Shown here: positions 217-10,401 of the stretch, piece by piece
Layout of the letters: each line of letters begins with the position of its first letter
Numbering within the stretch: the stretch's first letter is position 1
Virus record (IMG/VR): IMGVR_UViG_2671180770_000023
DNA length: 10,401 bases
Source: a virus
Lineage: Duplodnaviria > Heunggongvirae > Uroviricota > Caudoviricetes
Direction: 5' to 3' (one strand)
The notes under the pieces: generated by a model
What the model was told of the DNA's origin: nothing
The model's input: the letters and a program-made list of their open reading frames with translations, nothing else
Databases searched by the model: none
Made by a program: the position numbers and the translations under genes

Positions 217-430
217 CGGGTCCTTCCTGGAATTATGGCCCGTTACGGGGCGGCGACCTCGCGGTTTTTATCTGTTTATGAAAATTTTTCTGGAAAAAGC
301 ATGTCGGTACTTCTCGAACATAACTATTTGTTTTTAAATAGATACACAATAAAAAGAAACGACACGGTAATCATCTAAAATGGCGATTTATGACGCTTTC
401 ATGTCGTTTCTCAGTTTTGTTCAATAATTG
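217..430 (+). other. Lambda-type cos site, copy A (cosQ-like 217-230, cosN 248-259, cosB-like 260-430)
   Basis: Contains GGGCGGCGACCT followed by CGCGGTTTTT...GTTTATGAAAATTTTTCTGG, which matches my recollection of the lambda left end. The cosB-like part has inverted 8-mers AAACGACA (357-364) and TGTCGTTT (392-399) resembling Nu1 R sites. Upstream CGGGTCCTTCCTGG resembles cosQ. Confidence 0.7.
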
Positions 431-438
431 CGCGTCTG

Positions 439-981
439 TTACTCGCCTTTCTTCTGTAGCAACTTTTCCGGTACGTTTCCGGTTGTTTCTTTCAAGTAAT
501 CAGCCAGTATCTGTGGGAGGTTGTCGGCAACTCTGGCACTGGCATTACAGGCTTTAACCACTTCCCTTTTAAGCCTATCCAGCATGGCGGGGGTAATCTG
601 TGGGAAGCTCCTTTGCATAGTAAGCGGGAGGCTGTCCATGATTGATGAAATCTGACTCGCCAGCTTTGAAAGCGCGTACAGGCAAAACTCAGTATCAATC
701 ACGTCACCGCGATCGCGCTCGTTTTTAAGTTCCTGCGCCTCCGCCTGTGCTGTCAGTAATCTGATCCTGACTCGTAAGAGTTCATCATCATCAATATCGC
801 CTTTGTCGTTTGTAAGCTGGCTAATTGCATTGTTAACCCTATTGTCTATCACGCTGGCAACATCGTAAAACGCCTCACGGCCTTTACGTTCAACGGGAGT
901 CACTCCCCACTTGTCGAACGCTGTCGCACTTACACGGCAGCTTTTCGCCATGTTTTTTTTGTTCATCAGGTGCGATTTCAT
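439..981 (-). CDS. Terminase small subunit, lambda Nu1 family (180 aa)
   Basis: Central and C-terminal region (LLTAQAEAQELKNERDRGDVIDTEFC...MDSLPLTMQRSFP) aligns well with recalled lambda Nu1 (LTRAQADAQELKNARDSAEVVETAFC...LDGLPLSVQRRFP). N-terminal winged-HTH region is more diverged. True start is uncertain (ATG at 981, 966 or 951); none has a clear SD. Confidence 0.8.
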   Translation of the reverse strand: MKSHLMNKKNMAKSCRVSATAFDKWGVTPVERKGREAFYDVASVIDNRVNNAISQLTNDKGDIDDDELLRVRIRLLTAQAEAQELKNERDRGDVIDTEFCLYALSKLASQISSIMDSLPLTMQRSFPQITPAMLDRLKREVVKACNASARVADNLPQILADYLKETTGNVPEKLLQKKGE

Positions 982-982
982 T

Positions 983-1020
983 AATACACCAACTTAATTA
1001 CTGCTTCAGGTTGGTGTATT
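983..1020 (-). promoter_or_regulatory. 11-bp perfect inverted repeat (AATACACCAAC / GTTGGTGTATT, 16-nt loop) abutting the terS-like start codon
   Basis: Arms at 983-993 and 1010-1020. On the minus-strand mRNA the 3' arm ends 1 nt before the AUG at 981, so any SD would sit inside the stem. Confidence 0.4.
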
Positions 1021-1089
1021 GTTTGCATCTTTCCCTTTTCATTCATAAAGATAGAGCAAACAACAAAACCACCACCACCCCCCTGAAAA

Positions 1090-1158
1090 AGCTCATAAAT
1101 AGCGAAAAACCGCGAGGTCGCCGCCCCGTAACGGGTCCATATGCCGGAAAGGACCCGT
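1090..1158 (-). other. Lambda-type cos site, copy B, inverted (cosN on minus strand = 1126-1115; cosQ-like 1158-1144; cosB-equivalent is divergent)
   Basis: Reverse complement of 1105-1135 is identical over 31 bp to 239-269. The cosQ-like ACGGGTCCTTTCCGG lies outward. Sequence between cosN and the terS start has no R-site-like 8-mers and carries a GGT/G-rich run instead. Confidence 0.65.
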
Positions 1159-1961: not shown

Positions 1962-3017
1962 TTAACCAATTTTGACGGTAACAAATTTGCGAATATCTGC
2001 CGGTACCGGCTGCGGTGCACTGTGTGTCTGCACGTACTCAATCGCCGGATCTCCGTCCTCAATCCAGTTTTTCGGGTAGTACATGTTTTGCGTTGCCCCC
2101 GTTCTTACTGCGTCCTGATCCATAATCGCACCATAGGCCACCAGCCCTTTATTGTTGGTGTTGCCCAGGACAAGCAAATCAGGCTCAAGGAAATATTTTT
2201 CTCTGCCGTCACTGTCGGCGTATTTGCCGGAATAGACGATAAGGGCAATATCGCCCAGATAGCCTTTAAAGCTCACCACTTCGCCCAGGTTTTTACATGC
2301 CAGCTCTGCGGCGGACTCTGAACCACGGGAAAGATCGTACAGCTCACGGAATTTTTTAAAGCTGCGTAACGTTCGCCATACCTCAGCGCCCATAATCATG
2401 ACGTTGGCGGGGCAACCTGCCTGATCGGCGTATAGTTCGATATCATAGATTGGATCGTGGATTTCTTTGTCCTGCTCTGACCATTTTTTACCGTCGGCCT
2501 GCTCTATGATGTTTTTTTCCGGTATCTTCCAGTCGATTTCATAGCGCTCTATGCCTTCGCCCTCAATGATGTTTTTTCCGGTCGTTACCGCATTTACCGC
2601 CAGCCATTCCACGCGCGCTTTTATGGCGTTTATCTGGCGGCGCATATTGCCAGTAATCAGGCGCATACGGCGATAGGTAGGGTCGTTAAGCTGTGCCGGA
2701 TCTTCTCCAGCCATGCGCATGATGGTTTTCGTTGGATCGATTTCGTGCTTTGGCTTCATGTAGCCAGGTTTGATTGTGCTGGTTTCGTACCCTTTATCGC
2801 GCTGAACCTGGCTACCCACCATAGGCGAACAAAACGCCGACATGGTGACTTCTTCAATGTCCAGGGTATCCAGCATGATGTTTTGCGTGCTGAATGTCGC
2901 CACGTTCGGGAAAAACAGCGTGGTAAACAGCGGACTGAATTTAAATTCCGCAATATCCCCGCGATTCAGGTACGCAAAAAGCTGGTTAGTGTTAAGTGCC
3001 ATTGCTTTTACTGTCAT
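1962..3017 (-). CDS. Major capsid protein, lambda gpE family (351 aa)
   Basis: FKFSPLF..LFFP...TSTIKPGYMKPKHEIDP...DPTYRRMRL...YPKNW...GDPA matches recalled gpE (FKFDPLF..LFF...TSEFTPGYVKPKHEVNP...DPAYRRRRI...YPKNW...GDPA). ATG at 3017 lies 4 nt after a G10 run on the coding strand. Confidence 0.85.
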   Translation of the reverse strand: MTVKAMALNTNQLFAYLNRGDIAEFKFSPLFTTLFFPNVATFSTQNIMLDTLDIEEVTMSAFCSPMVGSQVQRDKGYETSTIKPGYMKPKHEIDPTKTIMRMAGEDPAQLNDPTYRRMRLITGNMRRQINAIKARVEWLAVNAVTTGKNIIEGEGIERYEIDWKIPEKNIIEQADGKKWSEQDKEIHDPIYDIELYADQAGCPANVMIMGAEVWRTLRSFKKFRELYDLSRGSESAAELACKNLGEVVSFKGYLGDIALIVYSGKYADSDGREKYFLEPDLLVLGNTNNKGLVAYGAIMDQDAVRTGATQNMYYPKNWIEDGDPAIEYVQTHSAPQPVPADIRKFVTVKIG

Positions 3018-9159: not shown

Positions 9160-10401
9160 CTACACGGCTCGGATACCCCTTTTACCACTGGCGAGGGTTA
9201 CGCCCGTCGCCGCAGCCTCGACAAATTCGCCCCACCAGCGCATCAGCACGATGCGTTTTTCTATGTAGTTGCTCCGGTTGTATGCCCGTCTAACTTCGTT
9301 GGTGTCGACGTGGGCAAGTGCCGCCTCTATTACGTCCGGCTCGAATCCTTCCTCGTTCGCTGCTGTGCTGAATATGGCGCGTAATCCATGAGACACCAGC
9401 ACGCCAGCGAATCCCATACGCCGCAATGCTGCGTTAGCTGTCTGGCTGTTCATCGGCTGCTGTGGGTCTTTCAGACTTGGGAAAACGTAATTGCGGTGGT
9501 GGCTGATTGGTTTCATGGCCTCCAGCACCGCCATAGCCTGACCGGAAAGCGGGATAACGTGATCCCTGCGCATCTTCATGCGTCCGGCAGGTATCGTCCA
9601 TTGCTTCGCGTCCAGGTTGATTTCATCCCACCGCGTTGATGACGCTTCGGCGGGACGGGTTACGGTCAGTAACTGCCATTCAATCAGTAATCTGGTCTGC
9701 CGTTCTGTTGCCGATACTGATAAAGCCTGCATAAGCTCCGGCAGCTGTTCGGGGCGGATTGTTGGCATATGTTTTTTTACAGGTGAGGGAAACGCCTTAC
9801 GCACATTCATAGCCGGATTGGCATCAATCAGCCCACTGTTGGCGGCGTAATCCATTACCTCATTAACGCGCTGTAAAACCCGCTTGAGTGTTTCCAGGTT
9901 GCCGCGCTCCTTGATGGGGGTAAGCACTTCAACGAACCTTCGGGCGGTGAGGGTATCTATTGGCGTGTTGCCGATGAACGGGAATACATATTTATCCAGC
10001 GAACGCCAGATGTCTTTAATCGTGTTGGGGGCCAGATTCTGGCTGATTTTCACCTGGTACCATGCCGCCGCCACATTTTCGAACGTGTTCCCTTGTCTTC
10101 GGGCCTCTGTCTCTCTTTTTTGCCTCTCGTGGTCCTGCGGGTCAGTTCCGGCACTGATTAACGTCCTGTACTCGCTACGGCGTTTTCTGGCATCAGCCAG
10201 GGAAACATCTTCAAGCGATCCAAAACTCAGCAATATTCTTTTTTTGTCCGATGGTCGGTAGTAGGAAAATCTCCAGAGTTTTGATCCAGACGGTTTGACC
10301 AGGAGAAAAAGCCCTCCGCCGTCCTGCAGGGTGTACTCCTTTTGCGCTGGTCTGGCTGCTTTGATCTGCACTGTGGTTAATGGGTGTGTTTTTCTCGCCA
10401 T
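9160..10401 (-). CDS. int: Tyrosine recombinase, P4-type integrase (413 aa)
   Basis: N-terminal arm-binding-like region (GGGLFLLVKPSGSKLWRFSYY...) typical of P4-like integrases. Catalytic H-x-x-R (HGLRAIF) and C-terminal Tyr region (RAYNRSNYIEKR). ATG is the last three bases of the window. Confidence 0.9.
   Translation of the reverse strand: MARKTHPLTTVQIKAARPAQKEYTLQDGGGLFLLVKPSGSKLWRFSYYRPSDKKRILLSFGSLEDVSLADARKRRSEYRTLISAGTDPQDHERQKRETEARRQGNTFENVAAAWYQVKISQNLAPNTIKDIWRSLDKYVFPFIGNTPIDTLTARRFVEVLTPIKERGNLETLKRVLQRVNEVMDYAANSGLIDANPAMNVRKAFPSPVKKHMPTIRPEQLPELMQALSVSATERQTRLLIEWQLLTVTRPAEASSTRWDEINLDAKQWTIPAGRMKMRRDHVIPLSGQAMAVLEAMKPISHHRNYVFPSLKDPQQPMNSQTANAALRRMGFAGVLVSHGLRAIFSTAANEEGFEPDVIEAALAHVDTNEVRRAYNRSNYIEKRIVLMRWWGEFVEAAATGVTLASGKRGIRAV

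Follow-up and report, generated by a model that had tools for sequence, protein, structure and literature searches.

Why does a phage-like element carry two lambda-type cos sites that face each other across a small terminase gene? The question is raised by IMG/VR virus record IMGVR_UViG_2671180770_000023, a stretch of 10,401 nucleotides of Caudoviricetes DNA (hereafter the window, meaning the whole stretch that was analysed). The lambda cosN 12-mer GGGCGGCGACCT occurred in it exactly twice, at 248–259 on the plus strand (copy A) and at 1115–1126 on the minus strand (copy B), on either side of a gene for a Nu1-family small terminase (terS). The explanation that we consider probable is a packaging module with two cos sites of different specificity, namely a private site (copy B, cos1) and a helper-type site (copy A, cos2), whose shared cosQ-cosN-I2 sequence permits occasional inversion of the segment between them. 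As part of this explanation, the window was assigned to the lambda-helper-dependent EcCICFT073/EcCIIHE3034 family of phage-inducible chromosomal islands (PICIs). The orthology of the two sites with cos1 and cos2 of EcCICFT073, their sequence anatomy, the co-variation of one site with the adjacent gene and natural inversions of the segment were all obtained in this analysis.

Two inverted cos sites with different cosB regions

Positions 239–269 were the perfect reverse complement of positions 1105–1135 (31 bp), and a repeat finder lengthened the inverted arms to 217–288 and 1086–1157 (72 nt, 82% complementarity). A cosQ-like GGGTCCT was located outside each copy, at 217–230 (+) for copy A and at 1158–1144 (−) for copy B, and the spacing between cosQ and cosN was in both copies that of lambda, phage 21 and PhiR5_1. 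Judged by sequence, both copies are predicted to be lambda-type cos sites, with a 12-bp cosN with flanking symmetry, a cosQ and a cosB with one or more R elements at approximately bp 48–65. Two cosN matches were found in none of 200 dinucleotide-preserving shuffles of the window. The 31-bp repeat, the two 12-mers and the outer cosQ elements had been reported in a preliminary description of this DNA, and all of them were recovered at the positions given there. The same applied to the end of terS next to the cosB of copy A, its stop codon (439–441) being located 190 bp from cosN.

Among relatives, the perfect repeat between the two copies was 21–48 bp long, most often 31 bp. The copies evolve in concert. 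In one relative (L108), the two copies (2902(+) and 3669(−)) had a variant cosN in common, GGGCGTCGACCT, and in another (L008; 2826–2870 and 3720–3765) a cosQ flank of the cos2 type was found at cos1. Both loci suggest that sequence has passed from one inverted copy to the other by gene conversion.

The preliminary description had called two opposed cos sites unusual. The sites were there, but their novelty had been overstated, since the arrangement is published as cos1 and cos2 of EcCICFT073; two opposed cos sites are a documented feature of the EcCICFT073 family. The gene order in EcCICFT073 is major capsid protein (c1499), Dec (c1500), a gene for a protein of 137 amino acids (aa), cosN(+), rppA (144 aa), cosN(−), a 93-aa open reading frame (ORF) and the island end at phoQ. 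The dual-cos synteny was also found in the window, and the same order was present in 80 IMG/VR loci. The outer flank of copy A was identical to that of the inverted site labelled 'CFT073 cos.2' (Fig. S5, PMC6092414). The flank of copy B was the same as that of CFT073 cos1 (L002 2515–2570), and both sites are located between the 137-aa gene and the gene for packaging specificity. The identical outer flanks and the 'cos.2' label identified copy A as the cos2 orthologue and copy B as the cos1 orthologue.

When placed on a plasmid, each EcCICFT073 cos site led to transfer by lambda and phi80 (Fillol-Salom et al., PMC6092414). Deletion of cos1 lowered transfer of the island, and deletion of both sites abolished it (PMC6092414). 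Of the two sites, cos1 alone has a cosB to which the RppA-TerS heterodimer responds as a recognition site (Fillol-Salom et al.: ISME J 2018, PMC6092414; Mol Cell 2019, PMC6739421). Two putative cos sites are also present in SaPIbov4, according to Fillol-Salom et al. Three possible roles of the opposed sites had been put forward in the preliminary description. Packaging from either site would agree, by analogy, with the orthologues in EcCICFT073, where each cos alone confers plasmid transfer and the island is still transferred unless both sites are deleted. The combination of a helper-type with an island-specific cos was the best supported of the three, because copy A was collinear with phage sites and an element in copy B co-varied with the adjacent protein. 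The third, an invertible cassette, is treated in the next section.

An alignment with phage cos regions, which had been proposed as a check, was favourable for copy A: the cos regions of phage 21, PhiR5_1 and lambda were collinear with it through all of cosB, as far as the Nu1 start codon, with a mean column identity of 78%. Its boxes (Table 1) were placed with the help of the R and I boxes annotated in phage 21 (M81255) and of the alignment with PhiR5_1 and lambda, and the R2/R1 inverted pair was also recovered as an inverted repeat (repeat I2, 346–364/402–420). The best phage matches were PhiR5_1 (82.9%) and lambda (75.4%). The cosB of copy A had been described as lambda-like, which was correct for R2 and R1 (lambda/PhiR5_1-like) but not for R3 and I1, which were closer to phage 21. 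In the case of CFT073 cos2, a phage cosB was not identifiable according to the 2018 and 2019 papers (PMC6092414, PMC6739421). From cosQ to approximately +135, it was 93.3% identical to the cos of the PhiR12 phages, which is located between Rz and Nu1.

The cos2 slot was surveyed in the 69 TerS-type loci that held both terS and the 93-aa ORF. It contained a full cos2 with the lambda cosN in 29 loci, another cos-like module in nine, a truncated site with a deletion from the terS stop into cosN in nine, and nothing (an 11-bp gap) in 22. Both cos sites were present in 20 of the 21 informative Rpp-type loci. The cos2 of locus L086 was SerU-LTIIb/Gifsy-1-like and had a different cosN, and that of L098-type Rpp islands was N15-like. 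The variation of this slot across loci indicates that cos2 is a variable, exchangeable and dispensable module, with cos1 fixed. The L098-type cos2 was at first read as satellite-type; this reading was dropped after the comparison with N15, and the site was re-read as phage-type. In locus L023 (3700–4062), a cos2 module with an AGATCC-type cosB was broken up, R3 being followed by coding-like sequence unrelated to it; this may represent an insertion or a rearrangement that deleted cosN and cosQ.

Copy B matched phage cos sites only up to approximately +40 past cosN, and the start of terS was located 134 bp from cosN. The divergence from phage cos noted in the preliminary description was thereby borne out, but its 'G-rich' cosB was refined to an N15-type R3, with N15 instead of lambda as the comparator. 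The R3-like element (Table 1) had the same distance to cosN as the N15 R3 region GGTTGTTGTTTAAT. Its occurrence was followed in loci sampled from IMG/VR (80 with window-type TerS, 25 with RppA); the 137-aa protein, used as bait in cross-species genome contigs, had given no confirmed locus, and IMG/VR was sampled instead. The N15-like element was found in 80 of 80 TerS loci and hardly varied in sequence among the TerS-type islands, with 68 of 69 loci having its start at bp 52, and ACCAC[CA]ACCAC was found in 25 of 25 Rpp loci, with its start at bp 56. There was no crossover between the cosB types, and the N15-like element was never located upstream of rpp. Among the sequence evidence, this strict co-variation of cosB type and adjacent gene weighs most in favour of the cosB of cos1 being read by the protein encoded next to it.

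The cosB of copy B was also considered as a type unique to islands. This was partly rejected, the region being N15-like, though no phage in the collection had a close TerS. A conserved block, AATACACCAACCTGAA, just 5' of terS was invariant in 34 distinct cos1 sequences from TerS-type islands. The block and its inverted partner, which together span 983–1021, may serve as an operator or as a further TerS site. The Rpp-type R3 candidate ACCACCACC (L002 2613–2625, plus relative to cos1) was the reverse complement of the TerS-type GGTGGTGGTGG (window 1069–1079). The two are at nearly equal distances from cosN, either by coincidence or as a flipped binding site.

In some TerS-type islands (L051, L053–L063, L072, L082 and L087), a cosN unlike that of lambda was located approximately 145 bp 5' of terS (GGGCGGAAGGCG, GGGCGTCAGGCG, GGGCGGCAGACG and GGGCGGCTGACG). 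Islands with a variant cosN (GGGCGGAAGGCG, GGGCGTCAGGCG and others) retained cosQ, I2 and the N15-like R3, which suggests adaptation to helpers whose large terminase subunit (TerL) prefers another cosN.

The terS product matched Pfam PF07471 Phage_Nu1 (2.3e-23) and PHROG 57 'terminase small subunit' (3e-53). It was 35% identical to lambda Nu1 across residues 3–180 (E 2e-34), with a divergent N-terminal winged helix-turn-helix region and Nu1-like sequence through the C-terminus. The C-terminal part of Nu1 is the TerL-binding domain, which is missing from Rpps (Murialdo and Feiss 2022, PMC9026076). N15 gp1 was the closest phage relative (46% identity), and none of 50,697 phage records contained a TerS more than 60% identical to that of the island. 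Two proteins were considered as an Rpp and rejected: the 180-aa terS product (BLASTP against RppA, E 1.4; no PDB match to RppC) and its 137-aa neighbour (PDB sequence search without a relevant match). The Rpp protein that belongs to the EcCICFT073 dual-cos module, where it redirects the TerS of the helper, was not found in the window.

Natural inversion of the cassette

Synthetic junctions were built with the segment between the perfect cores reversed and were searched in complete E. coli genomes. For the window type, the flipped left junction was matched over its full length in five complete genomes, compared with 477 genomes that carried the module in its native orientation. In JNE181771 (yejO/tRNA-Pro site) and PM4-5 (mdtJ/tqsA site), terS was annotated opposite to the strand of the capsid genes. 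In blastn comparisons with both strains, window positions 217–1157 were reversed and both flanks were forward, which places the breakpoints within the repeat. The two islands had different nearest native islands (93.9% and 95.8%) and different cos2 cosB types, and the PM4-5 junction, once 'de-flipped', was 99.4% identical to native relatives.

Among genomes with the CFT073 type, the flipped junction was found in 31 and the native one in 69. WP4-S17-ESBL-08 carried the island at the same phoQ site, with identical RppA and ORF93 proteins and rppA on the other strand, and its inner 0.8 kb was 99.4% identical to CFT073 in reverse. The 31 flipped genomes may represent one lineage, since the matches listed have one identity value. 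At least three inversions have occurred independently. None of the 105 IMG/VR loci was flipped, and four independent CFT073 assemblies were all native; the two orientations were found between strains, in a comparison across genomes. Both cos sites were intact in either orientation. No invertase or recombinase gene was found in the cassette or adjoining it; terS alone is located inside, and the neighbours are capsid-related genes and ORF93. The invertible cassette of the preliminary description was supported to the extent that complete genomes contain precise inversions whose breakpoints fall in the cos repeat, but such inversions were rare for the window type (5 versus 477) and no invertase accompanied them.

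All breakpoints were located within a core of 25–31 bp around cosN. We considered whether the packaging enzyme itself flips the cassette, with terminase cutting both cosN sites and the ends being re-annealed and ligated. Such cuts would yield a 0.87-kb inner fragment with two identical 'left' 12-nt ends and the rest of the island with two identical 'right' ends, and ligation would remake two perfect cos sites in either orientation without a recombinase. If true, any period of helper activity would allow the flip, and the swaps of foreign phage cos sites into the cos2 slot would be accounted for as well. RecA- or Red-mediated recombination on the repeat fits the core breakpoints equally well, and flipping by terminase is in our judgement distinctly unlikely.

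Explanations for the paired sites

The two-specificity module would work as follows. After induction, the island would replicate into concatemers, as is established for the family. The cosQ and cosN of copy B are those of lambdoid helpers, so that they would be cut by the helper TerL. The Nu1/N15-gp1-like TerS of the island would read the single R3 of copy B, and its Nu1-like C-terminus would recruit the helper TerL. As in lambda, packaging from copy B would run toward terS and stop once it reaches copy B again and encounters cosQ in the right order. Copy A would be a captured phage-type cos, at which the unmodified terminase of the helper enters in the opposite direction and the island TerS is not needed; this was shown for CFT073 cos2, and we infer the same for the window. 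A motor started at one site would pass the other in the non-cutting orientation. The 31–72 bp common to both copies would be shared because both sites serve the same TerL, and inversion of the 0.87-kb cassette and gene conversion would be by-products of the shared cosQ-cosN-I2. Cuts at both sites would break the substrate, which could explain the higher transfer after cos2 deletion in one laboratory setting.

Several points weigh against this explanation. The functional evidence comes from the EcCICFT073 sites, TerS-type islands being known from their sequence, and the contacts of TerS with DNA and with TerL were deduced from homology. EcCIIHE3034, which was catalogued as a PICI and noted as encoding TerS by Fillol-Salom et al. 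2018 (PMC6092414), was not transferred upon induction of its resident prophages (PMC6092414) and so has no known helper. No sequenced phage was more than 83% identical to the cosB of copy A in the window. A consensus scan between copy B and terS predicted no sigma-70-like promoter for terS; cosN-centred 'terminator-like' matches in the same scan were weak 5-bp stems and were regarded as incidental. Deletion of cos2 raises the lambda-mediated transfer of EcCICFT073 (PMC6092414), and cos2 is dispensable, being absent from 22 and truncated in nine of the 69 TerS-type loci.

The last two points would be expected if copy A were a remnant of recombination with helper phages, neutral or slightly harmful and without a selected role, and copy B alone mattered, and Murialdo and Feiss discuss solely the cos upstream of rpp, with cos2 unmentioned. 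However, cos2, where present, was complete from cosQ through cosN to cosB and was swapped for other complete phage-type modules among islands. It was also retained in nearly all informative Rpp-type loci, and L108 kept the same variant cosN in both copies. The double deletion needed to abolish transfer implies that cos2 supports residual packaging. We therefore regard a leftover as unlikely, while giving it some weight. The phage-type cosB of copy A is likewise compatible with an interference device, in which a helper-type cos on a multicopy replicon soaks up or misdirects the helper terminase and lowers phage yield. PICIs of the EcCICFT073 family do interfere strongly with lambda, but in EcCICFT073 this effect maps to rppA, whose deletion restores plaque formation, and cos2 is missing from many islands; such a device is very unlikely.

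A programmed invertible switch, with frequent flips in the population that alter the direction of packaging or the expression of terS or rpp, would account for the precise inversions within the repeat in at least three island lineages, for the 99.4% match of the de-flipped junction to native relatives and for the 31 flipped and 69 native genomes of the CFT073 type. It is hardly compatible with the lack of an invertase or recombinase gene in or beside the cassette, with only five flipped genomes of approximately 482 for the window type and none of the 105 IMG/VR loci, or with the four native CFT073 assemblies beside 31 flipped genomes that may be one lineage. Since the cos sites are intact either way, there is also no evident on/off state, and we judge a switch to be highly improbable. 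The probability that the inverted duplication is an artefact of assembly or of chance, the former having been named in the preliminary description as a ground for refutation, is close to nil. An uninterrupted copy of the module was present in 477 complete genomes, 29 IMG/VR loci had it with both lambda-type cosN, and the dissected CFT073 island contained it too; the shuffled windows never contained two cosN matches. The module with two cos sites of different specificity was retained as the best explanation.

The dual inverted cos arrangement was already known and the island type had been catalogued; a description of the cos sites or the packaging of EcCIIHE3034 was not found in the literature searched. 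As far as the searchable literature shows, three points are new: TerS in the place of Rpp, combined with an N15-like cos1; a cos2 that is modular and of phage type; and the natural inversion of the cassette. PICIs of the cos type carry virulence and defence genes among enterobacteria, and packaging specificity sets which phages mobilise them. The published model describes Rpp-type islands with essentially one cos site. The window represents a widespread sister type (477 of 5426 complete E. coli genomes) with its own small terminase and an N15-like site beside a second, phage-type cos. A second cos slot with interchangeable modules of different lambdoid phages may set or widen the helper range, the strict co-variation of cos1 with the adjacent protein points to a likely binding element, and the cassette can invert in nature owing to its inverted cos pair. 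These findings extend the current understanding and overturn none of it.

Surroundings of the module and known systems

Table 1. Positions of the cos sites, the terS gene and the surrounding features in the window.
Feature	Position	Strand	Remarks
60-aa ORF	1–183	−	PHROG 1561, E 3e-28, profile positions 43–93
Copy A arm, EcCICFT073 cos2 orthologue	217–288	+	cosQ-like GGGTCCT 218–224, cosN 248–259, I2-like T-rich stretch to ~281
Phage-type cosB of copy A	289–438	+	Ends at position equivalent to phage Nu1 start
R3-like box of copy A	297–312		
I1 (IHF)-like box of copy A	319–333		
R2-like box of copy A	354–369		
R1-like box of copy A	397–411		
terS	439–981	−	180 aa, Nu1-family small terminase homologue; alternative start possible at 966
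Conserved block AATACACCAACCTGAA	1006–1021, inverted partner 983–993	−	Just 5' of terS
N15-type R3-like element GGTGGTGGTGGTTTTGTTGTTTG	1057–1079	−	bp ~47–69 from cosN; proposed island TerS binding site
Copy B, EcCICFT073 cos1 orthologue	1086–1158	−	cosQ-like ACGGGTCCTTTCCGG 1158–1144, cosN 1126–1115, then I2-like stretch
Intrinsic-terminator-like hairpin with T run	1164–1185	−	9-bp stem, 5 G-C pairs; directly after 137-aa gene, before copy B cosQ
137-aa protein gene	1189–1602	−	PHROG 1999; outer right flank of invertible cassette
gpD-like head decoration gene, c1500 homologue	1615–1950	−	Pfam HDPD 1e-16
gpE-like major capsid gene, c1499 homologue	1962–3017	−	Pfam Phage_cap_E 8e-51
Tyrosine integrase	9160–10401	−	

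The whole window is a PICI of approximately 10.5 kb, a phage-parasitising island of E. coli. It had an integrase at its end, a primase/replication module, a length of approximately 10 kb and neither tail nor lysis genes; att repeats were found around its relative in MS 21-1. All genes were on the minus strand; in addition to the integrase they encoded a D5-type primase, a single-stranded DNA-binding protein (SSB), the gpE-like major capsid and gpD-like decoration proteins, the 137-aa protein, the terS homologue and the 60-aa ORF. The first 1.5 kb of the window was present in one piece in the 477 of 5426 complete E. coli genomes, which include Nissle 1917, UM146 and IHE3034. In IHE3034, the match (928625–930224, 97.4% identity) was located within EcCIIHE3034 (NC_017628 920272–930825).

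The best match of the window was an island of approximately 10.7 kb in E. coli MS 21-1, located beside tRNA-Pro/yejM. It is bounded by 37-nt direct repeats (L001 13214–13250 and 23893–23929) that are 10,679 bp apart, from which it follows that the island reaches approximately 790 bp past the left end of the window. The repeat sequence, CCGTATAAC[C/T]AAACGTATAACTAAAA..., was similar to an att sequence that the 2018 supplement gives for a PICI at the yejM site. The packaging modules of the two islands were 99% identical, whereas their replication modules differed, with a RepA-type helicase in the MS 21-1 island and a D5-type primase in the window. Just 3' of the helicase gene, the MS 21-1 island contained three copies of TTTT(A/T)(A/G)TGCCCACTTTTT (L001 18422–18606), 82–85 bp apart, which resemble the iterons of replication origins.

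The 60-aa ORF was the 93-aa ORF of the family (full-length copy: L002 3374–3655) minus an in-frame internal 99 bp, and relatives showed a 99-bp gap in blastn. It is annotated as a partial pseudogene in MS 21-1. The 93-aa ORF was always the next gene after the cos2 slot, with or without cos2. In loci L075, L076, L078 and L083, the start of the ORF93 homologue contained a variable run of ATGACC hexamers, in frame and encoding N-terminal Met-Thr repeats, and the gap between terS and ORF93 rose by 6 bp (251, 257, 263 and 269 bp).

The 137-aa protein had the same accession in MS 21-1 and CFT073 and was conserved in Rpp-type and TerS-type islands. It weakly matched the head maturation protease family PHROG 53 (E 6e-9) in its C-terminal part, a region common to lambda-type scaffolds. 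The protein is possibly scaffold-like, and the island may thus encode capsid, decoration and scaffold-like proteins together. Deletion of c1499 in EcCICFT073 had no reported phenotype.

EcCICFT073 shares with the window the gene order, the outer flanks, the cosN 12-mer, the inversion of the two sites around a specificity gene and a cos1 cosB unlike that of the helper. The specificity proteins, Rpp (144 aa) in EcCICFT073 and a Nu1-family TerS (180 aa) in the window, had no detectable similarity, and the TerS of the island presumably takes the place of that of the helper instead of forming a heterodimer with it, as Rpp does. The cos1 cosB was GGTGGTGG-TTTTGTT (N15-like) in the window and ACCACCACC in EcCICFT073, and the cos2 cosB was phage 21/lambda-like in the window and PhiR12-like in EcCICFT073. 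EcCIIHE3034 had a packaging module 97% identical to that of the window; its insertion site is cspD-clpS, unlike the tRNA-Pro/yejM site of MS 21-1, the closest relative of the window.

Among phages, N15 resembles copy B in having the closest TerS (gp1), a similar R3-like motif at equal distance from cosN and terS shortly after it; its single-R3 cosB is discussed in Murialdo and Feiss 2022 (PMC9026076). N15 differs in its cosN (GGGCGGCGTCCG), in having no second cos and in its spacer to terS, which is 88 bp long compared with 134 bp, including an extra conserved block, in the island. Lambda and phage 21 have the elements of copy A (cosQ-cosN-I2-R3-I1-R2-R1) in the same order and spacing, with an identical cosN. 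Unlike in these phages, no terminase gene is located 3' of copy A, where the convergent 3' end of terS is found instead, and the R boxes are mixed, with a 21-like R3 and lambda/PhiR5_1-like R2 and R1.

The window can also be compared with other satellites and with invertible DNA. Copy A matches the strategy of SaPIbov5, SaPIbov4 and P4, which carry the cos of their helper, and copy B with terS matches that of Staphylococcus aureus pathogenicity islands (SaPIs) with their own small terminase and its own site. The window has both strategies side by side, inverted and in a Gram-negative cos system, whereas the TerS of SaPIs belongs to pac (headful) packaging. With the Hin, Gin, Cin and Fim systems, the cassette has in common a short segment between inverted repeats that occurs in both orientations in natural genomes. 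It differs from them in that it has no dedicated recombinase, its repeats are cos sites, and its flips are rare and have no evident on/off effect.

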